From Patescibacteria group bacterium (GTDB lineage: Bacteria > Patescibacteriota > Minisyncoccia > UBA6257 > UBA9933): DNA of 33,091 nt. This document shows positions 879 to 29,694 of this stretch, piece after piece. The notes beneath the pieces were generated by a model that ran no database searches, was not told the origin of the DNA, and saw only the letters and a program-made list of their open reading frames with translations. Each line of letters begins with the position of its first letter. Position 1 is the first letter of the stretch. Location of the stretch: assembly GCA_038063335.1 (NCBI GenBank), contig JBBTVF010000033.1:1-33091 (forward strand), in the 5' to 3' direction. Made by a program: the position numbers and the translations under genes.

Positions 879-892
879 TTTGGCCGCAAGAA

Positions 893-921
893 AGACGCTT
901 GATAAGAGCGTCTTTTTGTTT
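893..921 (+). terminator. Rho-independent terminator after rplL
   Basis: AGACGCT (893-899) pairs with AGCGTCT (907-913) around a 7-nt loop, followed by TTTTGTTTT. Confidence 0.6.
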
Positions 922-955
922 TAAATTAAAAATATTGGGCGCATAGCTCAGCTTG

Positions 956-1063
956 CCCCCACACCAAAAATTTTAGGACGATTAGCTCAGCGGCAGAGCA
1001 TTGCATTCACATTGCAAGGGTCAGAGGTTCGAATCCTCTATCGTCCAAATTTTGGTGTGGGGG
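956..1063. repeat. Palindromic element; arms CCCCCACACCAAAA (956-969) and TTTTGGTGTGGGGG (1050-1063) enclose the inner tRNA
   Basis: Perfect 14-bp inverted repeat read directly from the sequence. The same CCCCCACACC/GGTGTGGGGG arms recur at 27566-27597. Confidence 0.85.
976..1047 (+). tRNA. tRNA-Val (anticodon CAC)
   Basis: Canonical cloverleaf: GGACGAT-TA-GCTC/AGCGGCA/GAGC-A-TTGCA/TTCACAT/TGCAA-GGGTC-AGAGG/TTCGAAT/CCTCT-ATCGTCC-A73. No encoded CCA. Confidence 0.9.
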
Positions 1064-1137
1064 GGTGAAGTAGAGCGTTCCGTTCACATCGGAAAGGTCA
1101 GAAGTTCGATCCTTCTTGCGCCCGCACCGTTAAAAAC

Positions 1138-1167
1138 TTGACATATCAACTGTATTGTCTTTATAAT
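1138..1167 (+). promoter_or_regulatory. Sigma-70-type promoter, probably giving a leaderless or near-leaderless mRNA for the 1176 ORF
   Basis: TTGACA (1138-1143), 18-nt spacer, TATAAT (1162-1167). The ATG at 1176 lies only 8 nt after the -10 box and no Shine-Dalgarno sequence is present. Confidence 0.5.
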
Positions 1168-2246: not shown

Positions 2247-3596
2247 ATGCCGGATTTTTTAATTTCTTATCAATCTTTGATTGTTTCCGTTGTCATAACG
2301 GTTGTTCTTTTGGCGCTGGCAATAGCGCTTTTTAAGATATTTGAACAGGTGTGGCTTTTTTATAAGCAGTCACTTTATAAAAAAGCCATTAAATGGACAG
2401 TTTTAGAATTAAGAATTCCTCGCGAGGTTTTGAAAACGCCGAAGGCGATGGAGCAATTTTTTATAAATTTACACAGTTTAAAGAATGAGCCCGGAAATTT
2501 TTTAGAAAAATATACTGATGGCGAAGTGACTTTATGGTGGAGTTTAGAAATAGCGAGCCTTGGCGGTAAAATCCATTTTTATATCAGAACGCCAAAAAAA
2601 CATAGAAAAATGTTTGAAGCAGGGATGCACGCGCAATATCCCAATATTGAAATTATTGAGACCGAAGATTATCTTAATAAATTACCTAGTTCTACAAAAG
2701 AATTTTATGAGAGCAATGAGAATATTTTCGGCAGTGAGTTTAATTTAGGTAAAAAGGATTTTTATCCCATTATTACTTATGACCATTTTTTTAATCAACC
2801 CGCAAAACTTGATGACCAAAAACAAGTAATAGTTGACCCTCTTTCAGCGCTTATTGAAGTTTTGGCCGGAATTCACAAAGAAGAAAACGTTTTTATTCAG
2901 ATTTTAATCGCGCCGCTTAATGATGATTGGAAAAATGAGGGGAGAGATTTTGTAAATAAAAAACTCGGCAAAGAAGAAAAGAAGAAAGGAGGATTCAATC
3001 AAATTATCTACGAATGGACAAAGAATTTTTTATGGGCGCCGACAGAATACCCGGTTTGGTCAGAACCGAAAGAACCGGCAAAAAAAGAGCCGGCGAATAT
3101 CAGCGACTACGAAGCCATGAAAGAGATTGAAAATAAACTTTCTAAACACGGTTTTGAAAGCTTAATTCGTTTTCTTTATATTGCTCCAAATTCCATTTAT
3201 AGTACAAATTTTGCGAGAAAGGGTATTTTGGGCGCTTTTAACCAATATGCTTCTTCTTTAAATTTTTTCAAAAATAATCCCTTGGTTGAAACCAGAACAA
3301 GATGGATATATTCTCCTCATGTTTTTGTTAAGCAAAGAGTTGAAGCGAGAAAACAACGATTATTATATAATTTTAAGAATAGATTATTTCCGGAAAAACT
3401 GTCCTTCGGCAAATTTATGACGTCGCATATTTTTGATTTTAATAATAAATCAAAAACTTCAGTTTTTGTCACTTCTGAACTCGCGACTATTTATCATATC
3501 CCGGCTGAACAGGTTTTGACATCTCCACATATTGAACGGGCGGAAAGCAAAAAAATGGGTCCGCCGGCCGGTTTGCCGATATTTGAAGAGGAATAA
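2247..3596 (+). CDS. Membrane-anchored protein of unknown function, first gene of the long operon
   Basis: 449 aa with an N-terminal TM helix (LIVSVVITVVLLALAIALF). 5-nt gap to the next ORF. No recognisable catalytic motif. Confidence 0.6.
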   Translation: MPDFLISYQSLIVSVVITVVLLALAIALFKIFEQVWLFYKQSLYKKAIKWTVLELRIPREVLKTPKAMEQFFINLHSLKNEPGNFLEKYTDGEVTLWWSLEIASLGGKIHFYIRTPKKHRKMFEAGMHAQYPNIEIIETEDYLNKLPSSTKEFYESNENIFGSEFNLGKKDFYPIITYDHFFNQPAKLDDQKQVIVDPLSALIEVLAGIHKEENVFIQILIAPLNDDWKNEGRDFVNKKLGKEEKKKGGFNQIIYEWTKNFLWAPTEYPVWSEPKEPAKKEPANISDYEAMKEIENKLSKHGFESLIRFLYIAPNSIYSTNFARKGILGAFNQYASSLNFFKNNPLVETRTRWIYSPHVFVKQRVEARKQRLLYNFKNRLFPEKLSFGKFMTSHIFDFNNKSKTSVFVTSELATIYHIPAEQVLTSPHIERAESKKMGPPAGLPIFEEE

Positions 3597-3601
3597 ATTT
3601 T

Positions 3602-4114
3602 ATGATATTGACTTTGCAAATTATTTTAATTGTTTTAATACTAGCGTTAGTTGTCGCCATTATTTGGTTTATGGCAAAATCTTTTCCGTTCAGGCCTAAA
3701 TTAAATCCTTCGGGAACCCTTAATCTTCTCAAGGGCTTAAAAGTGACGGATGGTAAATATAGGCAGATAATCAAGCATAGAGAATTAATTCATAAAAAAT
3801 GGAATAAATTATTGGAAAGAATAAAATCCGGCGACGAGCGCGATTTGCGTTTGGCAATTATTGAAGCTGATAGTTTAGTTGACGAGATTTTTAAAGAGCA
3901 CGGTCATCCGGGCAAAGATATGGGTGAGCGGTTGAAATCAATCCATCCGAGCGAGATAGATAATCTCAATGATTTATGGGAAGCTCATAAAATCAGAAAC
4001 AGACTTGCCCACGAAGCCGATTTTCATTTATCAGTAGAAGAAGCTAAAAAAATAATTGAAATTTACCACAGGACAATAGAAGAATTATTAAATATTGAAT
4101 TGGAATTGATATGA
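3602..4114 (+). CDS. Single-pass membrane protein of unknown function
   Basis: 170 aa with an N-terminal TM helix (ILIVLILALVVAIIWF) and a helical C-terminal domain. Its stop overlaps the next start (ATGA at 4111-4114). Confidence 0.55.
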   Translation: MILTLQIILIVLILALVVAIIWFMAKSFPFRPKLNPSGTLNLLKGLKVTDGKYRQIIKHRELIHKKWNKLLERIKSGDERDLRLAIIEADSLVDEIFKEHGHPGKDMGERLKSIHPSEIDNLNDLWEAHKIRNRLAHEADFHLSVEEAKKIIEIYHRTIEELLNIELELI

Positions 4115-5760
4115 ATCAAGAAACCAAAACCTGCCAAAATTGCAAACAAAACTTCACTATAGAACCTGAAGATTTTGAGTTTTACGAAAAAGTGAAGGCG
4201 AAACCGCCGAAGTATTGTCCTGACTGCCGCCAACAAAAAAGATTGGCTTTTTGGCCTTTTGCGAAATTTAATAAGCGAAAGTGTGATTTAAGCGGAGAAA
4301 GCATAATTTCAATTTATCCTTCAAGCGCGCATTTTCCGGTTTATAAATCCAGCAATTGGAATTCCGATGCATGGGAACCGCCATTTTTGGATTATGACGC
4401 TTCAAGGAATTTTTTTGAACAGCTTTATGAATTGCAAAAAAAATCTCCTAAGCCTCATCAATTTGGGTCCAATAATCAAAATTGCGATTATTGCGACGAT
4501 GTCTGGGATTCAAAAAATTGCTATCTCTGCCGTTCTTTGGGCAGTTGCGAAAATCTTTCATATTCATATAGGGTGCTAAATTCCCGCGATTCTTATGATT
4601 TAACTTATTGCTATGATTCCGAGTTGTCCTACGACTGCACCTATTGTTTTAAGCTTTATAATGTAAAGTACGCTTTTGATTCGCGCGATAGTTTTGATAG
4701 CGCGTTTTTATATGATTGCCGAAATGTGAGAAATTGTTTTATGTGCTGGAATTTGCGCAATAAAGAATATCATATTTTAAACCAACCGTATTCCAAGGAA
4801 GAATATTTCCAGAAATTAAAAGAATATAATTTGAATTCTTGGAATACGGTTCAATTTTTAAAGAAAAATTTTGAAAAAAAGATTAAAGAAGAAGCGGTTC
4901 ATAAAAACAATTTCAACACGAAAACCATAAATTCAAGCGGTAATTATTTAAGCGAGTGTAAAAAATGCAAAAATTCTTATTTTTTGGAAAAATCGGAAAA
5001 TTGTTCTTATTATTTCAGAGGAGCGATGAATAAGGACGTAAACGACTCGACTGGAGTTTATAAAGGAGAATTAGCGTATGACGTGAATCAAATGACAGAA
5101 ATATACAATATGAAGCATTCCAATTATTGTATTAATTGCCGCGACAGCGAATATCTTGATTCGTGCGTCGGGTGCGAGAATTGTTTCGGGTGTGTTGGTC
5201 TTAAACATAAAAGCTATTCCATTTTAAATAAACAATATTCCAAAGAGGATTATTATGATTTGGTTGTCAAAATCAAGAAAGCGATGGAAGACGACGGTTC
5301 TTATGGAGAATTTTTTCCTAATAAGATGGCGCATGGCGGATATAATCTTTCGCTTGCTGGAATATTTTTCCCGAAAACAAAAGAAGAAGTTTCTAAATTA
5401 GAAGGAAATTGGGAAGAGCTGGAAGATACGGATATATCCAATATGAGTTTTAGTCCATTTGTGGACGATATTTCAACCGTAGAAAGCGAGATGGCCGGAA
5501 AAGTCTTTTTGTGCGAAGAAACCGAAAGGCCTTTTAATTTTAAAAAAGAAGAAATTGAATTTTATAAAAAACATTCCATTCCTTTGCCCCATCACTATCC
5601 TGATGTGCGCACCAAAAGCAGGATAAAAAATTTATTCTGCATCAATCCGGTTGAGGCCAAATGCGCGTTTTGTCAAAAAGATATTATTTCTTATTATCCC
5701 AAAGAATGGGAATACAAAAAAATTACTTGTAATGAATGTTATTTAAAGGAAGTAGTGTAA
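4111..5760 (+). CDS. Cysteine-rich zinc-ribbon repeat protein, paralog 1
   Basis: 549 aa. N-terminal CxxC...CPDCR ribbon, two internal modules ending in C.NCF.C..L..K.Y.ILN..YSKE(E/D)Y, and a C-terminal EIEFYKKHSIPLP...CxxC ribbon. Clear paralog of 5771, 9429 and 11441. Confidence 0.8.
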   Translation: MNQETKTCQNCKQNFTIEPEDFEFYEKVKAKPPKYCPDCRQQKRLAFWPFAKFNKRKCDLSGESIISIYPSSAHFPVYKSSNWNSDAWEPPFLDYDASRNFFEQLYELQKKSPKPHQFGSNNQNCDYCDDVWDSKNCYLCRSLGSCENLSYSYRVLNSRDSYDLTYCYDSELSYDCTYCFKLYNVKYAFDSRDSFDSAFLYDCRNVRNCFMCWNLRNKEYHILNQPYSKEEYFQKLKEYNLNSWNTVQFLKKNFEKKIKEEAVHKNNFNTKTINSSGNYLSECKKCKNSYFLEKSENCSYYFRGAMNKDVNDSTGVYKGELAYDVNQMTEIYNMKHSNYCINCRDSEYLDSCVGCENCFGCVGLKHKSYSILNKQYSKEDYYDLVVKIKKAMEDDGSYGEFFPNKMAHGGYNLSLAGIFFPKTKEEVSKLEGNWEELEDTDISNMSFSPFVDDISTVESEMAGKVFLCEETERPFNFKKEEIEFYKKHSIPLPHHYPDVRTKSRIKNLFCINPVEAKCAFCQKDIISYYPKEWEYKKITCNECYLKEVV

Positions 5761-5770
5761 TCTGTGAATT

Positions 5771-7549
5771 ATGAACCAAGAAACAAAAATTTGTCAAAAC
5801 TGCAAACAAAACTTCGTTATTGAGCCCGAAGATTTTGAGTTTTACGCCAAAATCAAAGTCCCGGCGCCGACTTTTTGTCCGGAGTGTAGGATGCAAAGAA
5901 GATTGTCTTTCAGGAACGAGAAAATATTGTATCGTAGAAAATGCGATTCATGCCAGAAAGATATTGTAAGTATTTATCATAAAGACAGCCCTTATACGGT
6001 CTATTGCCAGAAATGTTGGTGGTCGGACGATTGGGATTCTTTGGCGTACGGGAGAAAATATGATTTTGGAAAGCCGTTTTTTTCTCAATTTCAAGATATT
6101 TTAAAATCTGTTCCCAGACTTTGTTTAATAAACGTCAATTCGGTAAATTCGGAATACACCCATTTGGCCGCGGACAGCAAAGATTGCTATTTTCTTTTTG
6201 AAAGCTCTAATAATGAAAGAAGCGATTATAGTTATTGGATGCAACAGAGTAAAGATTGCGTTGATTGTTCTTTTGTAAATAATAGCGAGCTTTGCTATGA
6301 AACTATCATAGCTTGGAATTGCTATAAACTTTTTTACTCAAAAGAATGCCGTGATTGCGCAGACGGTACGTTTCTTTTAGATTGCATCGGTTGTACTGAT
6401 TGTTATGGCTGTGTTGGGTTGAGAAATAAAAAATATCATATTTTTAATCAGCCGCAGAGCAAAGAAGATTATTTAAAAATTGTAGGCGAAAAGAAAAAAG
6501 AGATGCTGGACGGTAACATTGATAAATTAAAAGACGAGTTTATTAAATTTGCGCTTAAATATCCTAATAAATACGCCTATATACAAAAATCAGTGGATAG
6601 CAGCGGAGATTATTTATTAAATACAAAAAAATGTACTTTCTGTTTTCATGGATATGACGCTGAGGATTGTAAATACGGGTATCATGTGTGGCGGAATTCA
6701 AAAGATAATATGGATGTTTGTACAGTGGGGAGAGACGCCGAATTAGTATATGAAACTATAAATACTGGTATGGGCATTTATAATGTAAAATTTGGAATTC
6801 AAAATTGGAATGGAAACAGGGATTTGCAATATTCTGAAGCATGTTCGGGTTCTCAAAATTTGTTCGGATGTACGGCTTTAAGAACTAAAGAATATTGTAT
6901 TTTAAATAAGCAATATACGAAAGAAGAATATGAAGATTTAGTTTCTAAAATAATGAAGCATATGAATGATAATCCGTATACAGATAAGAATGGCCATGTC
7001 TACAAATATGGCGAATTTTTTCCACCTGAAATTTCATTTTTTGCCTACAATGAAACTTCGGCTAATGACCATTTTCCACTTATTAAAGAATCCGCTGAGA
7101 CAAAAGGTTATTATTGGAAAGAAAAAGAAAAAAGAAGTATTTCTCCAACTTTAAAGCATGACGAATTATCAAAATATAATAGTGACATCCCAGATTCGTT
7201 GACTGGTGAAATTATATCGTGTAAAAACGAAGGCAGAGAAACATATTGCACGGAAGCGTTTAAAGTTATTGCTAGAGAATTGGAGTTTTATAGGAAAATG
7301 AATTTGCCACTTCCCGAATTTTGCCCCAACTGCCGTCATTACCAGAGACTCAAACAAAGAAATCCATTAAAACTCTGGCATAGGAAATGTCAATGTAATG
7401 GAAATGAATCGGAAAACGGTATTTATACAAATACTATCGCTCACCAACACGGAACAGAACCCTGTCCCAATGAGTTTGAAACCACCTATTCACCAGACAG
7501 AAAAGAGATAGTATATTGCGAGCGTTGTTATCAACAGGAAGTCGTATAA
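5771..7549 (+). CDS. Cysteine-rich zinc-ribbon repeat protein, paralog 2
   Basis: 592 aa with the same architecture. The first ~80 nt are nearly identical to paralog 1 and the C-terminal third is very similar to paralog 4. Confidence 0.8.
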   Translation: MNQETKICQNCKQNFVIEPEDFEFYAKIKVPAPTFCPECRMQRRLSFRNEKILYRRKCDSCQKDIVSIYHKDSPYTVYCQKCWWSDDWDSLAYGRKYDFGKPFFSQFQDILKSVPRLCLINVNSVNSEYTHLAADSKDCYFLFESSNNERSDYSYWMQQSKDCVDCSFVNNSELCYETIIAWNCYKLFYSKECRDCADGTFLLDCIGCTDCYGCVGLRNKKYHIFNQPQSKEDYLKIVGEKKKEMLDGNIDKLKDEFIKFALKYPNKYAYIQKSVDSSGDYLLNTKKCTFCFHGYDAEDCKYGYHVWRNSKDNMDVCTVGRDAELVYETINTGMGIYNVKFGIQNWNGNRDLQYSEACSGSQNLFGCTALRTKEYCILNKQYTKEEYEDLVSKIMKHMNDNPYTDKNGHVYKYGEFFPPEISFFAYNETSANDHFPLIKESAETKGYYWKEKEKRSISPTLKHDELSKYNSDIPDSLTGEIISCKNEGRETYCTEAFKVIARELEFYRKMNLPLPEFCPNCRHYQRLKQRNPLKLWHRKCQCNGNESENGIYTNTIAHQHGTEPCPNEFETTYSPDRKEIVYCERCYQQEVV

Positions 7550-7639: not shown

Positions 7640-9097
7640 ATGACAGATAAAGTTAAAATTATAAGATACGCGTCGCCGCCTTCGGACTTACCGATTTACG
7701 GACAAGTTGACCCCCAAGAGGTTTGTTTTTTTGGACGCACAAATTATGAATCGGAATTTGAAAGCAAAAGGTATGTTTTTGGCATCAAAAGGAATGATCG
7801 CAGACGTCATTTCTATATTGTTGGGAAATCCGGAGTGGGGAAGTCAAAAATGCTTGAGTTAATGATTAGGCAAGATATTAATTACGGTCATGGATTATGC
7901 TTGATGGACCCGCATGGCGATATTATAGAAGACATTCTTGATTTTATTCCAGAAAACAGAATAAAAGACGTGGTTTTGATTGATCCATCTGACACAAATT
8001 GGCCAGTTTCATTTAATCCTCTGCAAAATGTGGCGCCGGAAATGAAACATCAAGTAACGCAAGGATTGATTGAGGTGATGGAAAAACAATTCGGCGCCAA
8101 TTGGACGCCGCGATTAGAGCACGTTTTTAGATTTACTTGTTTGGCTTTGCTTGATTATCCGGGCGCTACAATGAGGGGAATGATTTTAATACTCACGGAT
8201 AGAAATTATCGTCAGAAAGTTGTGGAACATATTCAAGATGAAATGGTAAAGCGGTTTTGGGCGATTGAATTTGCGGACTGGTCGGAAAAATTTGATACAG
8301 AAGCCATTATTCCTTTAGTTAATAAACTTGGCCAGTTTTTATCCAATCCATTATTGCGTTATATTTTCGGCCAAAAAGAAAATAAAGTTGACCTTGAAAA
8401 AATAATGAATGAGCAGAAAATTCTGCTTATAAATTTATCAAAAGGGAAATTAGGAGAAGAAAATTCCAGTTTTTTCGGCTCAATGTTTGTGACAAAAATT
8501 TATCAGGCCGGTATGGCAAGATCGGCGATTAAAGAAAGAGAAAGAAAAGATTTTTATTTTTATGTTGATGAGTTTTACAATGTGGTAACGGATACTTTTA
8601 TCAATATTCTTACTGAAGCGAGAAAATACGGTTTGGCTTTAATAGTGGCGCATCAGTATCGCGCTCAGCTTCAGCCGCAAATAATGGCGACTTTTTTGGG
8701 TAATGTAGCAACAATGGTAATTTTTCGGCTTGGCGGCGATGACGCGCTTGTTTTTGAAAAAGAAATGACGCCGGTTTTCAAGGCGAAAGATATGATAAAT
8801 CTGGGAATGCAGGAATTTTACATTAAGATGACTATTGACGGCGGCACGGCTGACCCGTTTTCCGCCGAAACTTTGAAAATTTTGCCGCCAACGCATCCGT
8901 CTTATAAAGATAAAATTATTGAATATAATCGTCAGATTTATTGTTCATCAATTGAAGAAGTAAAAAGAAGAATTGCGGAAGAAGAGGGATTGGTTACGAA
9001 GCCGTCTTCCACCGGAAACTCCGATGTTTCAATTTCAAAGGTCGAAAATAAATCTTCCGCGGAAATTTCATTGCCGTCGGAAGAACCAATAGTGTAA
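7640..9097 (+). CDS. TraD/TrwB/VirD4-like P-loop NTPase (coupling-protein-type ATPase) without its own TM segment
   Basis: Walker A GKSGVGKS followed by CLMDPHGD; Walker B FYFYVDEF; ARKYGLALIVAHQY. Layout resembles the T4SS coupling-protein / FtsK-HerA superfamily. Confidence 0.7.
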   Translation: MTDKVKIIRYASPPSDLPIYGQVDPQEVCFFGRTNYESEFESKRYVFGIKRNDRRRHFYIVGKSGVGKSKMLELMIRQDINYGHGLCLMDPHGDIIEDILDFIPENRIKDVVLIDPSDTNWPVSFNPLQNVAPEMKHQVTQGLIEVMEKQFGANWTPRLEHVFRFTCLALLDYPGATMRGMILILTDRNYRQKVVEHIQDEMVKRFWAIEFADWSEKFDTEAIIPLVNKLGQFLSNPLLRYIFGQKENKVDLEKIMNEQKILLINLSKGKLGEENSSFFGSMFVTKIYQAGMARSAIKERERKDFYFYVDEFYNVVTDTFINILTEARKYGLALIVAHQYRAQLQPQIMATFLGNVATMVIFRLGGDDALVFEKEMTPVFKAKDMINLGMQEFYIKMTIDGGTADPFSAETLKILPPTHPSYKDKIIEYNRQIYCSSIEEVKRRIAEEEGLVTKPSSTGNSDVSISKVENKSSAEISLPSEEPIV

Positions 9098-13262: not shown

Positions 13263-13613
13263 ATGAAAAATTATTATTATATTTCGGCAATAATTAAATA
13301 TCTTACCGGATTGTTGGAAATTGTTTTGGGAGCGAGGGTAATTTTGAAATTTTTGGGCGCCAGTTCAAAGGCGCTGATTGTGGAATTGCTTTATAAAACA
13401 ACCGATTTCATAACGGCTCCGTTTAAATTCATATTCCCGAATGTTTATCTTGATAAGGGAGTAATTGATTTTACAACTCTTTCCGCGATGCTCGGATATT
13501 TGATATTGGTATTGGCGATACTGAAATTTTTAAGGCTTGTTTTAATCAGGCCGTTGGAAGACGACAAACCGAAAATAGATAAAATAAGCAAGCCTCCTTT
13601 TATAAATCGTTAA
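13263..13613 (+). CDS. YggT-family small membrane protein
   Basis: Hydrophobic protein with a YggT-like pattern (LLEIVLGARVILKFLGA...TDFITAPFKFIFP...GVIDFTTLSAMLGYLIL). The tracked ORF starts at 13218, but the ATG at 13263 avoids overlapping paralog 4. Confidence 0.5.
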   Translation: MKNYYYISAIIKYLTGLLEIVLGARVILKFLGASSKALIVELLYKTTDFITAPFKFIFPNVYLDKGVIDFTTLSAMLGYLILVLAILKFLRLVLIRPLEDDKPKIDKISKPPFINR

Positions 13614-15286
13614 GCTCCTTCTATCGCTTTTTTAATGGCTTCTTTTAATTCTTCTATTTGATTTTCGTTTATTGATTTTTTGGCGAATTCTTTTATTGTC
13701 GGTTCTTTTTGTTCCGGCGATTTTTTTATAAAATCAGATTTTTTTAATTCTTCCAGCGAAATTTCTTTTTTTAAAGGCGTTTTAATTTCTTCCGCTTTGA
13801 TTGCCCCTCCGGTTTTTTCAATAAAAGTTTTTCGTCGCGGCGGTTCAAATTCTATGCCGATTTCTCCCAAATGGCCGGCGTGCGTGAATTTTTTAAAACC
13901 TTCTCTTCCAAAAGCCGGCTTAGTTCCTCTAATTTCCCGCCCTTCATTTTTTTCGTCGCTGAATTTTCTTTCTATTATTGGTCTTTCCGTTGCTAATCCG
14001 CTCCATCTGGAAATTTCTTCTTCAACCTCGCGTTTTGGCTTGGAGTACAATTTACGCGACATTTCAATAACCTCTTCATGATTATTGTCGCGCGCCGTTA
14101 CGGCAAGAGGCGGCAGCGTGTTGGCAGAGAATGGTCGGCTGGTAACACCGTCAACCATTAATTTCAAATAAATTTGACGATTGGGCAAATTAACAACATC
14201 TTCAATGGTAAATTCCGGCTCCAGTTCTTTTTCTAAAAAATCAGCGTCCGCGGCGCCGATACGAAAAATTACCATTGTTCCGACGTTGCCGAAAATGGCG
14301 TCTCGCACAACCGTTGAATCTTTAGTCGCCAGCTGGCCGACATATTGGTGCGCGATAATCAAGTTTAACCGGTATTTTCTGGCCTCGGAAAGGATATTGG
14401 CGAACGATTCGGTGACGAAATTCTGAAATTCATCAACATAAAGATAAAAGTCTTTTCTTTCGGATTCCGGAATTCTTACTCTTTCCATCGCCGCCAATTG
14501 GATTTTCGTGATAATCATCGCTCCCAGAAGCGCGGCATTGTCTTCTCCAATTCTTCCTTTTGAAAGATTAACTAAAAAGATTTTTTCGCTGTTCATTATT
14601 TCAGGAATATTGATGGTGCTTTTTGGCTGACCGACTATGTTTCTGACGAGCGAAGTTGAAAGAAATTGTCCGACTTTGTTTTGGATAGGAACGATAGCTT
14701 CATTTCGGAATTGGTCGCGCCATGTTTCGTATTCATTTATCCAGAATGATTTTACCACTGGGTCTTTAATATTGGCGATAATTCGTTGGCGATAATCTTT
14801 ATCAACAAGAATTCTCGGTATGCCTAAAAGCGTGGTGCCGGGCGTATCTATTAAAGCTAGAACACAGTTGCTTAAAATGTACTCCATTCTAGCTGACCAG
14901 ACATTCGCCCAGATTTTGGTGAAAATCGCCATTAAATCCGAAGATACTAAATGTTTGTATTTCAGGTCCGAGACTTCAAGAACATTGAATCCTATCGGGT
15001 GTTCGGCGTCTATCGGATTAAAATAAACAACGTCTTTGAGCCGTTCTTTGGGGATTCTCTTCATAATCGTTTCAACAAACTCGCCGTGCGGGTCTACGAT
15101 ACAAACTCCCCGGCCATTAATAATGTCTTGAAGGGCCACGTTAAAAAGCATGGTGGTTTTACCGGTGCCGGTTTTTCCGATGACGTACATATGCTGGCGG
15201 CGGTCAACGGTTTTGATGCCAAAAGCGCGGTCCTTGTTGCGGAAGTTTGTTTTGGCGAATACGGTGATGTCTTTAATGGTTTCCAT
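13610..15286 (-). CDS. Second TraD/TrwB/VirD4-like P-loop NTPase, paralog of 7640-9097, with a long charged C-terminal tail
   Basis: Walker A GKTGTGKT, CIVDPHGE, Walker B FYLYVDEF, ARKYRLNLIIAHQY. Collinear with the first ATPase over about 430 aa. Confidence 0.7.
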   Translation of the reverse strand: METIKDITVFAKTNFRNKDRAFGIKTVDRRQHMYVIGKTGTGKTTMLFNVALQDIINGRGVCIVDPHGEFVETIMKRIPKERLKDVVYFNPIDAEHPIGFNVLEVSDLKYKHLVSSDLMAIFTKIWANVWSARMEYILSNCVLALIDTPGTTLLGIPRILVDKDYRQRIIANIKDPVVKSFWINEYETWRDQFRNEAIVPIQNKVGQFLSTSLVRNIVGQPKSTINIPEIMNSEKIFLVNLSKGRIGEDNAALLGAMIITKIQLAAMERVRIPESERKDFYLYVDEFQNFVTESFANILSEARKYRLNLIIAHQYVGQLATKDSTVVRDAIFGNVGTMVIFRIGAADADFLEKELEPEFTIEDVVNLPNRQIYLKLMVDGVTSRPFSANTLPPLAVTARDNNHEEVIEMSRKLYSKPKREVEEEISRWSGLATERPIIERKFSDEKNEGREIRGTKPAFGREGFKKFTHAGHLGEIGIEFEPPRRKTFIEKTGGAIKAEEIKTPLKKEISLEELKKSDFIKKSPEQKEPTIKEFAKKSINENQIEELKEAIKKAIEGA

Positions 15287-27455: not shown

Positions 27456-28361
27456 CTATCCACTAGTCACTAGTGTCGGCTTTTTTCCTTCAACTTGGAT
27501 TTTTGTTAATTTTAATTTATTATCAGAAATTTGCGCTTCTAATAATTTTATCCTTTTTCCGTTTACCCCCACACCAAACAAAGTTGTGGTGTGGGGGTTT
27601 ATTATAGTCCAAACACCGGGTTCTGGATTCAGGGCTCGAATTTTTCGTTCTATTTCAAAAGCGACTTGTGGCGAGCTTGCTGAATTATCTTGGGCGATTT
27701 TTAAATCTTCCGGTTTTATAAAAGCATCTTCGGTTTTAAATTTTTTAGTGTAAGTGGCTTGCAATTCGTCTTGTGGCGTCGCGTTTTTTATTTTTTCTTC
27801 AATATCCGGCAAGGTTTTAATCAATAAATCCGCGCTTAATTCCGCCAGTTTTTTCAATAAACTTTCATAAGTTTCACTAGTGGCTAGTGGCAAGTGGCTA
27901 GTGGTTAAAATTGGCCCGTTATCAATCTGCTCGTCCATTAAATAAAGCGTTGTTCCTGTTATTTCATCGCCGTTTAAAATTGCGGTTTGGATAGGAGAAG
28001 CGCCGCGATATTTCGGTAAAAGAGAGGGATGGATGCCGATTGCGCCGAGCTGCGGGATTTTTAAAATTTCTTTGGGGATAATTTGAGAATAAGCGGCAAC
28101 AATAAACAAATCGAATGATGAATTGGGAATTATGAATAATGAAGGGTCTAATTTTTCCGGTTGGAAAATTTGTATTTTATTCCTTATTCCTAATTCATAA
28201 TTCATAATTCTCTGTTTTACCGGCGGCGGGGTGATAATTTTTTTTCTGCCAACCGGTTTATCGGGATTGCAAACAACCGCCTCGGGTATAAAGTCGGCGT
28301 TAATTAATTTTTCCAAAATTATGGCGGCAAATTCGGGAGTGCCGAAGAATATGAATTTCAT
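27456..28361 (-). CDS. fmt: Methionyl-tRNA formyltransferase
   Basis: MKFIFFGTPEFAA, IVAAYSQIIPKEIL, GAIGIHPSLLPKYRGASPIQTAILNGD..TG.T, plus the C-terminal domain. Contains several repeat-derived in-frame segments. Confidence 0.9.
   Translation of the reverse strand: MKFIFFGTPEFAAIILEKLINADFIPEAVVCNPDKPVGRKKIITPPPVKQRIMNYELGIRNKIQIFQPEKLDPSLFIIPNSSFDLFIVAAYSQIIPKEILKIPQLGAIGIHPSLLPKYRGASPIQTAILNGDEITGTTLYLMDEQIDNGPILTTSHLPLATSETYESLLKKLAELSADLLIKTLPDIEEKIKNATPQDELQATYTKKFKTEDAFIKPEDLKIAQDNSASSPQVAFEIERKIRALNPEPGVWTIINPHTTTLFGVGVNGKRIKLLEAQISDNKLKLTKIQVEGKKPTLVTSG
27566..27597. repeat. Second copy of the CCCCCACACC / GGTGTGGGGG palindromic element, inside the fmt coding sequence
   Basis: Arms at 27566-27575 and 27588-27597 with a 12-nt loop. 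Translated on the minus strand as PHTTTLFGVG. Confidence 0.85.
27875..27904. repeat. Heptamer tandem repeat (CTAGTGG x4, one variant unit) inside fmt
   Basis: CA-CTAGTGG-CTAGTGG-CAAGTGG-CTAGTGG. Related units (CCACTAT CCACTAG TCACTAG TG) lie at 27453-27475, spanning the gap between the rpoC stop codon and the fmt stop. Confidence 0.85.
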
Positions 28362-28870
28362 TTTTTTATTTTATCTATAAACAAAATTCCGTTGAGGTGG
28401 TCTGTTTCGTGTTGAAAAACTCTGGCGGTCAGTCCTTCTGCTTTGATTTTAATTTTCTGGTCGTTTTTGTTAAAACCGGTTAGGGCGATTTTTTTCGGCC
28501 GTTCCACTTCGCCGAGAACTCCGGGAACGCTTAAACAGCCCTCTTCAATTATTTCCGTTTGTTTGGAAAATTTTATGATTTCCGGATTGAAAATCGCGTA
28601 AAATTTTGCTTCATCGGGAGATGGCATAATAATTTTATTTTTTTCGTCCCGTTTTAGCGGTTTGTCCGGAATTAAAGCGACAAACATTTTTAAATTCAAG
28701 CCGATTTGATTGGCGGAAAGCCCGATGCCGTTGGCATTCAACATTATTCCCCGCATTTTTTTAATCAATTCGTTGATTTCTTTTTTAGAGAATTTTACGA
28801 AGTCAAAATTTGCGGTTTTTGTCCGCAAAAATTTCTCCTCTTTTTTATTGTTAATGGTAAGAATTTTCAT
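28358..28870 (-). CDS. def: Peptide deformylase
   Basis: GIGLSANQIG, EGCLSVPG, QHETDHLNG (HExxH). Start overlaps the integrase stop and stop overlaps the fmt start, 4 nt each. Confidence 0.93.
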   Translation of the reverse strand: MKILTINNKKEEKFLRTKTANFDFVKFSKKEINELIKKMRGIMLNANGIGLSANQIGLNLKMFVALIPDKPLKRDEKNKIIMPSPDEAKFYAIFNPEIIKFSKQTEIIEEGCLSVPGVLGEVERPKKIALTGFNKNDQKIKIKAEGLTARVFQHETDHLNGILFIDKIKK

Positions 28871-29694
28871 AAATTATCCAATGGGCTTTTAATATTTCTA
28901 ATGGCTGGATTGGTAACTTTTGTATAGAGTTGGGTTGTTCTGATATTCTGATGCCCCAATAATTCTTGTACATATCTTACATCAACTCCATTTTCCAGCA
29001 AATGTGTCGCAAAGCTGTGGCGGAGTGAATGGAAAGTCGCCTCTTTTTGGACACCTGATTTTTTGAGTGCGTTTTCAAAAACTTTTTGCGCCGTTCGTTC
29101 TGTTAATTTTTCACTGCGTTCACTGGCAAATAAATAATCATTAATGTTTTTATTTGAAATCGATTTTTCAATATTTTTAACTAATTTTTCAGGTAAAATA
29201 GTAATACGATCTTTATTTCCTTTTGCTCCTTTAAGATGAATTGTCAATTCCGCTAAATTAATATCTTTCACTTTCAAATTTATAACTTCGCTGACACGGA
29301 ATCCGGCTCCGTAAGACAAGGCAACGATTAATTTATGTTTTTGATTTGAAATGGAATTTATAATTTTTTCTATTTCCAGCCGCGAAAGCACTATTGGCAA
29401 CTTTTTTGATGTCTTGGCAAACTTTAAGTCAATCACAATCAGCGATTTCATTATATCGCGATAGAAATATTTTATCGCGTTAAGATAAAGATTGATGGTT
29501 TGCGACGATTGTTTCCTTTCTTGTTTCTCTAATAGATATTTTTTGATTACATCAATATTCGGGTCTTTCTCAATGGTTCCAATAAAACGAAAGAAATTGG
29601 ATAAGCACAGAATATAGCTTTTTATCGTTTTGCGACTGTAGTTGCGCAATCTTAGCTCGTTTTCAATTTTTTGCAACAACTCTTGTGTTTGCAT
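28867..29694 (-). CDS. intI: Tyrosine recombinase; candidate integron integrase, short form without the IntI-specific extra domain
   Basis: R-H-R-Y set: GAGFRVSE, HSLRHSFATHLL, LLGHQNIRTTQLYTKV. The N-terminal YSRKTIKSYILCLSNFFRF and C-terminal IKSPLDNL resemble IntI as remembered. Divergent from an attI-like site and a cassette array. Confidence 0.8.
   Translation of the reverse strand: MQTQELLQKIENELRLRNYSRKTIKSYILCLSNFFRFIGTIEKDPNIDVIKKYLLEKQERKQSSQTINLYLNAIKYFYRDIMKSLIVIDLKFAKTSKKLPIVLSRLEIEKIINSISNQKHKLIVALSYGAGFRVSEVINLKVKDINLAELTIHLKGAKGNKDRITILPEKLVKNIEKSISNKNINDYLFASERSEKLTERTAQKVFENALKKSGVQKEATFHSLRHSFATHLLENGVDVRYVQELLGHQNIRTTQLYTKVTNPAIRNIKSPLDNL

Follow-up and report, generated by a model that had tools for sequence, protein, structure and literature searches.

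A tRNA-Val(CAC) gene nested within a second, disrupted tRNA-Val(CAC) gene downstream of rplL in Wolfebacteria-like Patescibacteria

We analyzed a 33,091-nt stretch of DNA (contig JBBTVF010000033.1 of assembly GCA_038063335.1; here called the window), in which one gene for the valine tRNA with anticodon CAC lies inside another. This one 33-kb window represents its genome throughout, whereas L-numbers denote loci or contigs compared with it and P-numbers denote proteins or lineages. The source is a Wolfebacteria-like member of the Patescibacteria: the best RplL matches are named Candidatus Wolfebacteria or Patescibacteria group, and contigs near-identical to the window derive from Hainich groundwater samples. 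At the locus, rplJ (40–495) and rplL (507–878) are followed by the intrinsic terminator of rplL, a hairpin and T run found in a terminator scan (889–917, plus strand; loop CTTGATAAG), by the nested tRNA region (937–1124, plus strand), and by a consensus promoter (TTGACA, 18 nt, TATAAT; 1138–1167, plus strand) belonging to the downstream Sigma70_r4/HARE-HTH gene (1176–2204), hereafter the helix-turn-helix (HTH) gene.

The inner gene (976–1047, plus strand; anticodon 1008–1010, A73 at 1047, CCA not encoded) was called as tRNA-Val(CAC) by ARAGORN and matched the Rfam tRNA family with 69.7 bits against a threshold of 29. According to both programs it forms a full cloverleaf with the conserved nucleotides, standard pairs throughout, anticodon CAC and A73; it carries the valine identity set A35, C36 and A73 and is of the canonical bacterial elongator type. 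The tRNA-Glu gene of the window likewise has no encoded CCA. A perfect 14-bp inverted repeat detected with a repeat finder encloses the inner gene, its left arm CCCCCACACCAAAA (956–969, plus strand) pairing at 14 of 14 positions with the right arm TTTTGGTGTGGGGG (1050–1063, plus strand). An earlier inspection of the letters, the sequence-only reading, had proposed both the nesting in a D-loop and a perfect helix around 976–1047, and ARAGORN, Rfam and the repeat finder bear it out on both points. With up to two mismatches allowed, the arm 14-mer occurs four times in the window against 0.32 expected, a count that 0 of 100 shuffles reached.

Around the arms lie the two parts of the outer gene. 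Its 5′ fragment (937–951, plus strand) consists of the acceptor strand GGGCGCA (937–943), TA (944–945), the D-stem strand GCTC (946–949) and AG (950–951), and is identical to positions 1–15 of the uninterrupted tRNA in two related loci (L101 and L096). The 3′ fragment (1071–1124, plus strand) resumes with TA and the D-stem strand GAGC (1073–1076) and continues through the anticodon arm (1078–1094, with CAC at 1085–1087), the variable loop, the T arm (1100–1116) and the acceptor strand (1117–1123) to a discriminator G (1124). Between them, in the D-loop from position 15 to about position 20 of the outer tRNA, sits a cassette of 119 nt (952–1070, plus strand; 117 nt in strains with five G) that replaces the TGG of the resident D-loop. 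It comprises CTTG (952–955), the left arm, a 6-nt leader ATTTTA (970–975), the inner tRNA, AA (1048–1049), the right arm, a polymorphic GG (1064–1065) and TGAAG (1066–1070). We set these limits by eye from the alignment to intact orthologs, the repeat finder and the polymorphism between strains, in which the G run at 1059–1065 counts either seven or five G. The sequence-only reading was right about an insertion and placed it at 953–1065; the uninterrupted ortholog moves its borders to 952 and 1070. The 119 nt contain no open reading frame (ORF), and 72 of them are tRNA.

Once the insert is deleted in silico, the outer gene reads as a tRNA, as had been anticipated from the letters: ARAGORN called tRNA-Val(CAC) over the junction for 8 of 8 deletion boundaries tried, and in a systematic deletion scan 238 of 291 junction-spanning calls were tRNA-Val(CAC). 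On the native sequence, ARAGORN in intron mode returned the inner gene and no outer tRNA, and Rfam gave the outer gene just a partial 28.3-bit match (1061–1124). The 189-nt RNA of the whole region is predicted to fold as a cloverleaf within a helix within a cloverleaf (−80.3 kcal/mol, z = −6.5), with the 14-bp helix continuous and extended by 3 bp past a small asymmetric internal loop. In agreement with the sequence-only reading, the predicted fold has no detectable bulge-helix-bulge (BHB) motif, and the same holds for a second nest (L097) described below. No intron, ribozyme or other Rfam family was found in the tRNA region, the whole window, L001 or L097 at gathering and permissive thresholds, the weak non-tRNA matches being noise, and no splicing endonuclease or ligase was seen among the ORFs scanned in the 33-kb window.

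The ancestral state of the locus can be read from relatives. A tRNA-Val(CAC) gene directly 3′ of rplL is kept across Patescibacteria (L001, L004, L005, L006) and in the genus-level relatives of the window; a scan of a genome collection with RplL returned mainly distant bacteria, with L001–L006 as the useful loci. In sister species with RplL 92% (L096) and 89% (L101/L102) identical to that of the window by alignment, the site between rplL and the HTH gene, with flanks as in the window, holds a tRNA that runs uninterrupted from GGGCGCATAGCTCAGTGGTAGAGCG to TGCGCCCA, also written GGGCGCATAGCTCAGTGGTAGAGCGTTCCG...TGCGCCCA, and has the D-loop AGTGGTA as well as A73. The outer halves of the window are 99% identical to this intact tRNA, and the sole difference outside the insert is A73G. 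A single intact tRNA-Val(CAC) occupies the site also in L091, L094, L104–L128, L207 and L004–L006, and the further RplL lineages P0006, P0010, P0012 and P0013 have one intact tRNA-Val each. Nests of the window type are restricted to genomes with RplL of 99–100% identity, hence the insertion is recent and derived. These comparisons identify the outer gene as the tRNA-Val(CAC) gene originally resident downstream of rplL in this lineage.

The discriminator is A in every intact relative and G in the outer gene of the window, and a 2-nt (GG) indel in the D-loop remnant distinguishes strains of the window species. A73 is a major identity element for valyl-tRNA synthetase (ValRS), as established in Escherichia coli. 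With the conserved GG region lost and G73 where ValRS needs A73, the outer gene should be non-functional, a pseudogene and not a split tRNA. The sequence-only reading had named an intact, uninterrupted tRNA in relatives as the mark of a simple pseudogene, and such relatives exist; the recurrence and layering described next make the case more than that.

A second, independent nest was found in the same aquifer in a sister species with 91% RplL identity (L097, 1944–2133; also L098, L099, L100 and L113). Its inner gene is an intact tRNA-Val(CAC) that belongs to a third sequence type and is enclosed by perfect 13-bp arms (CCCCGTTAGATTT/AAATCTAACGGGG). The insertion point is the anticodon loop of an outer tRNA-Val, which is of the same type as the inner gene of the window: these two are 87% identical, and their acceptor stems are equal. 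In the outer gene of this nest the anticodon loop is ruined and the D-loop lacks its GG; the L098 and L099 copies further have a G-to-A substitution that breaks a pair of the anticodon stem, and ARAGORN, run after excision of the cassette, assigned no consistent anticodon. By all these signs it is visibly decaying and would be dead.

One assembly points to a further layer. In L081, a contig of the window species (contig_6253 of ERZ1286166, 109.8 kb, RplL 100%; nested region at about 2460–2705), the inner tRNA contains 56 extra nt, which align to the L097 cassette, placed after the anticodon-loop GCATT, with 0 mismatches and many deletions. The short-read contigs L083, L084 and L088, from well H51, terminate exactly at this GCATT, as expected from a population that mixes filled and empty alleles. 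A third-level nest, A containing B containing C, is therefore the probable state in part of the population, judging from these contigs; a look-up with the HTH protein recovered no clean contig of a triple-nested allele. In such a mixture, GCATT inside the inner tRNA would continue into CACATTGC in some copies and into TTCACCCCG in others.

An older stage may be preserved in L001 (RplL 70%). Its intact tRNA-Val(CAC) is flanked by tRNA fragments at 3377–3405 and 3490–3512, the 5′ one an acceptor and D arm and the 3′ one a piece from anticodon stem to T loop that matches positions 36–59 of a relative's tRNA at 22 of 24 nt. Rfam detects no flanking tRNA there and surviving arms are absent; the locus looks like an old, decayed nest. 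When the deletion scan was run over 59 distinct tRNA contexts, junction-spanning outer tRNAs appeared in the window type and the L097 type and as two tandem-gene artefacts, and a metagenome scan anchored on the conserved downstream promoter yielded 6 loci and no new nested case. Taken over the loci compared, replacement of tRNA-Val by nesting recurs in Wolfebacteria-like Patescibacteria.

The nests belong to a locus with rapid tRNA turnover. Seven sequence types of tRNA-Val(CAC) occupy this one site (L091, L094, L096, L097, L101, L104, L207 and the window); at the nucleotide level they are 63–87% identical between species, the flanking genes 82–94%. L091, L097 and L101 have HTH genes that are 91–94% identical, yet they carry three unrelated-looking tRNA bodies, and the immediate flanks of L097 and L101 are near-identical. 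That the tRNA is more divergent than the adjoining protein genes points to replacement rather than drift in place, with nesting as one route; nesting alone does not account for a clean later removal of outer remnants. The intergenic region exists in two haplotypes, with terminator AAGACGCTTGATAAGAGCGTC or AACGCCTTGAAAGAGGCGTT, whose distribution does not track gene similarity.

The arms themselves belong to a repeat family, the arm pair being present twice in the 33-kb window. The second copy is a cargo-less palindrome, CCCCCACACCAAAC aaag TTGTGGTGTGGGGG (27566–27597), within fmt (27456–28361, minus strand), each of its arms 13/14 identical to those of the cassette, and it is flanked by the 4-bp direct repeat TTTA (27562–27565 and 27598–27601). 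Palindrome and TTTA together form a 36-nt in-frame insertion that encodes NPHTTTLFGVGV in the C-terminal domain of Fmt. Of 10 aligned Fmt homologs, 7 are without an insert at this position, P0121 and P0122 match all 12 residues, and P0123 has 12 other residues there.

Relatives of the window also carry small perfect palindromes of 24–36 bp with the core CCCCCACATAAA/TTTATGTGGGGG and variants of it, directly upstream of a −35-like TTGAxA in the terminator loop, the rplJ promoter and the HTH-gene promoter. They lie at 1754–1785 in L089, at 741–776 and 2151–2174 in L097, and between rplL and the HTH gene in L101 and L104–L128. L089 (RplL 99%) has one in the rplL terminator loop, where the window has an empty site, and L104-type genomes have one in that same loop. 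Several are flanked by TTGA on both sides; empty sites have one TTGA, and the TTGA of the HTH-gene promoter, a palindrome insertion site in relatives, is empty in the window. Presence or absence between strains, together with two copies of TTGA at filled sites versus one at empty sites, argues that the palindromes are polymorphic insertions with target duplications, like miniature inverted-repeat transposable elements (MITEs) or Rickettsia palindromic elements. They may target TTGA, or else have a role linked to promoters as well.

In a viral collection, the inner tRNA, the small palindrome and the L097 arms had 0 matches. The arm core CCCCCACACC..GGTGTGGGGG returned 66 unrelated phage hairpins, many of them terminator-like, when searched with a short gap and 7 chance matches, none visibly tRNA, with a long gap; because unrelated phage hairpins share the 10-bp core, this core alone is not diagnostic. 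No phage donor of the cassette emerged from these scans. Integron attC, Xer/dif and IS200/IS605-type sites were considered as origins of the palindromes and rejected by reasoning, given the misfit to the R-box consensus, a spacer of 0–10 nt, the many copies per genome and the single hairpin. An origin of the CT and AA dinucleotides as P-nucleotides, from hairpin opening, does not fit the junctions. In L091, a half-palindrome, AAATTTAACGGGG (about 2455–2467), lies 5 nt 3′ of the resident tRNA, abuts the −35 TTGACA and matches the right arm of the L097 cassette at 12 of 13 positions. This hints that cassette arms derive from native tRNA-Val trailers or leave traces there.

As to expression, the sole promoter-like site before the nested genes (TTGATA, 17 nt, TAAATT; 899–927, plus strand) is weak, with a 9/12 match. 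Its −35-like hexamer (899–904) lies in the loop of the rplL terminator, and terminator and promoter overlap. The promoter scan found no such site between the 5′ start of the outer gene and the inner tRNA. By inspection, the other intergenic haplotype (L104, L091) has an equivalent layout (TTGAAA, 17 nt, TAAGAT).

We propose the following course. A promoter-less 119-bp tRNA-Val(CAC) cassette from a related lineage, carried between the arms of a mobile palindrome, would have entered the D-loop of the resident gene, replaced its conserved TGG and inactivated it. The inner gene would then have taken over the supply of tRNA-Val(CAC), transcribed from the resident promoter with its −35 in the rplL terminator loop. 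In the single transcript, everything ahead of the inner tRNA (outer 5′ fragment and left arm) would serve as leader and everything behind it (right arm and outer 3′ fragment) as trailer, with a helix of 14–17 bp bracketing the inner cloverleaf. The inner tRNA would be matured by RNase P, a 3′ nuclease and the CCA-adding enzyme, and what remains of the outer gene would be discarded and left to decay. Repetition of this process would let incoming tRNA-Val(CAC) cassettes displace tRNA-Val(CAC) in place, each nesting in the previous gene.

That a palindrome-flanked tRNA cassette disrupted the resident tRNA-Val and took over its function through the resident promoter appears to us quite probable. 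The sequence-only reading had offered the same scenario, a palindromic tRNA-carrying insert that killed and replaced the resident, as the favoured one of two hypotheses, and the uninterrupted genes in L096, L101 and L102, the fmt copy of the palindrome and the L097 nest all speak for it. Both loaded cassettes have the same four nucleotides outside their arms, CTTG before the left arm and TGAA after the right arm in the window (outer borders CTTG and (GG)TGAA) and the same on the opposite strand in L097.

Several points weigh against this explanation. Unlike the cargo-less palindromes, the tRNA-loaded cassettes have no clean target-site duplication, and both replace 3–4 target nt rather than duplicate them, so that simple cut-and-paste transposition does not explain them. 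No transposase was found among the ORFs of the 33-kb window. The only recombinase there is an Xer-like tyrosine recombinase (28867–29694, minus strand; Phage_integrase plus an N-terminal SAM-like domain), which lies directly downstream of fmt and def, at a distance of 1.3 kb from the palindrome in fmt, and for which no link to the palindromes emerged. Further, a loaded cassette of either type was found at no locus except the tRNA-Val gene, and the case for mobility as a unit thus comes from two or three insertions in one gene family. The body of the outer gene matches the intact ortholog throughout, a sign of no more than a recent event, and the triple nest is drawn from one low-quality consensus region and from contig break points. 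Finally, we infer from sequence both that the inner tRNA is expressed and that the outer gene does not function.

A bolder version of the proposal is that these are selfish, palindrome-bracketed tRNA genes that home into the gene of their own isoacceptor and so produce fast turnover and nests in the manner of Russian dolls. The newcomer would destroy the resident copy, borrow its promoter and become indispensable. We regard this homing scenario as tentative, and would sooner expect it to be wrong than right. If it holds, tRNA-targeting toxins, or phage nucleases that recognise the stems, might drive an arms race that favours such turnover.

Among the alternatives, the one that survives best has no dedicated element at all: DNA of related strains would have been captured by illegitimate or homology-facilitated recombination, the nested alleles would have spread by homologous recombination, and the arms would be accidental. 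The inner and outer tRNA do share tRNA-wide microhomology, with TAGCTCAGC in common and 75% identity over 52 nt, sister species in the same aquifer have resident tRNAs similar to the inner ones, and both intergenic haplotypes look mosaic. Accidental arms, however, are hard to reconcile with two different cassettes that each have perfect inverted arms of 13–14 bp within 2–6 nt of the tRNA and share CTTG and TGAA outside them, even if the half-palindrome of L091 means that arm-like sequence is native beside tRNA-Val genes. The missing clean target duplication of both cassettes fits recombination, but the arms of the window match those of a cargo-less palindrome in fmt that does have one. Moreover, the L097-type cassette sits at one anticodon-loop position in two backgrounds whose flanks were not co-converted. 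On balance, we consider recombination without an element unlikely.

Far less likely still is the other hypothesis of the sequence-only reading, that the outer halves make a functional tRNA, either as two pieces held by the 14-bp helix or as a spliced or ligated product. Such a tRNA would be consistent with the cloverleaf that forms after removal of the insert, with the predicted nested fold (z = −6.5) and with an outer body free of substitutions except at position 73. That exception is a G73 against A73 in every intact relative, however, and the D-loop has lost its TGG and retains a remnant that differs by 2 nt between strains. There is neither a BHB motif nor an intron or ribozyme family, the split state is not conserved among relatives, of which the sister species are uninterrupted, and the parallel nest of L097 has an outer gene in decay, with its anticodon loop broken up. 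A chimeric assembly, or the collapse of two tandemly duplicated tRNA-Val genes, is suggested by several short-read contigs that break within the region and can practically be dismissed, since the identical nest recurs in at least 6 independent assemblies from different samples and assemblers (ENA, NCBI and Logan; L082, L086, L087, L089, L111 and L129), some with contigs spanning the region, and the break points match real polymorphisms, namely G-run length and the probable third-level insertion.

Elsewhere in the window, two adjacent paralogous genes (4111–5760 and 5771–7549, plus strand) encode cysteine-rich proteins of 549 and 592 amino acids with near-identical N-termini (MNQETKxCQNCKQNFxIEPEDFEFY) and no Pfam family above threshold. 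Two TrwB/TraG-like type IV coupling-protein ATPases (7640–9097, plus strand; 13610–15286, minus strand) enclose CutA1, two unannotated proteins of about 590 amino acids and a YGGT protein. Close homologs of Fmt, 93% and 79% identical to it, are mosaic in alignment columns of about 50–95 (window 28090–28220): P0121 and P0122 have the N-terminal segment LIAQKY..GNWKLEIGKIKNP, the window QRIMNYELGIRNK..SLFIIPNSS, which suggests recombination within fmt.

Our literature search turned up no report of one bacterial tRNA nested in another. The present case is a bacterial tRNA gene caught while it is being replaced from inside, repeatedly and in layers, in natural populations of one aquifer, and it looks like an undescribed way of bacterial tRNA gene turnover. 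If the cassettes are truly mobile and self-targeting, no gene-carrying mobile element known so far would be smaller. They would also exemplify an element made essential by replacing what it destroys, and would account for the faster divergence of single-copy tRNA genes, relative to their neighbours, in these reduced genomes. Because standard tRNA finders report the inner gene only, nests and relics go unnoticed in annotation.

According to a review of tRNA gene diversity, bacterial tRNA genes are structurally uniform, and group I/II introns at position 37/38 are the only significant exception (PMC4033280). For group I introns, BHB introns, split tRNAs and integrase-borne islands alike, a defining feature was looked for at our locus and is missing. 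Bacterial group I introns resemble the nests in that a bacterial tRNA gene is interrupted, in L097 even within the anticodon loop. They differ in that the insert of 115–119 nt has no group I core and its excision would not rebuild a normal loop; moreover, these introns lie in the anticodon loop, usually at 37/38 (PMC4033280), whereas the window insert is in the D-loop. The disrupted tRNA genes of archaea and algae (BHB introns, intron transposition in Thermoproteales, split and permuted genes; PMC4033280) share with our loci the helix-closed insert, its location in the D-loop or anticodon loop and the occurrence of similar inserts at different tRNA positions. In contrast, our insert has no BHB (two 3-nt bulges, 4 bp apart), is itself a tRNA and occurs in a bacterial host, and the interrupted gene is decaying rather than conserved, with no sign of splicing.

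Like MITEs and other mobile insertion cassettes, the tRNA cassettes have short perfect terminal inverted repeats (14/14; 13/13 in L097) and no transposase coding; they have a cargo-less sibling with a 4-bp target duplication, and related palindromes are polymorphic in presence and absence. Unlike them, the passenger here is a complete tRNA gene and the target a gene for the same isoacceptor, the loaded cassettes lack a clean target duplication and the arms measure only 13–14 bp. We know of no cognate transposase for these arms. Rickettsia palindromic elements are selfish palindromes that lie in frame in protein genes and also in RNA genes. A relation in sequence is not expected; here, too, a palindrome is tolerated in an essential gene (fmt, 12 residues) and in a structural RNA gene, but they are about 100–150 bp long versus about 32 bp here, and to our knowledge they do not carry a gene.

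The anticodon loop is a classic sublocation for integration in tRNA genes, and integrase islands and prophages likewise use a tRNA gene as target and compensate for the damage. They are, however, kilobases long, encode an integrase and restore the gene by a duplicated 3′ segment, whereas the 119-bp insert brings a whole independent tRNA and would leave the old gene dead. In xenologous gene displacement in situ, a gene acquired horizontally takes over from its resident equivalent at the same locus. Our loci resemble it in that function and locus are the same, the donor is a related lineage, and the tRNA differs between genomes far more than its flanks do. What sets our loci apart from it is that the gene is a tRNA, that the physical intermediate is visible as a new gene inside the old, and that the step repeats into nests.

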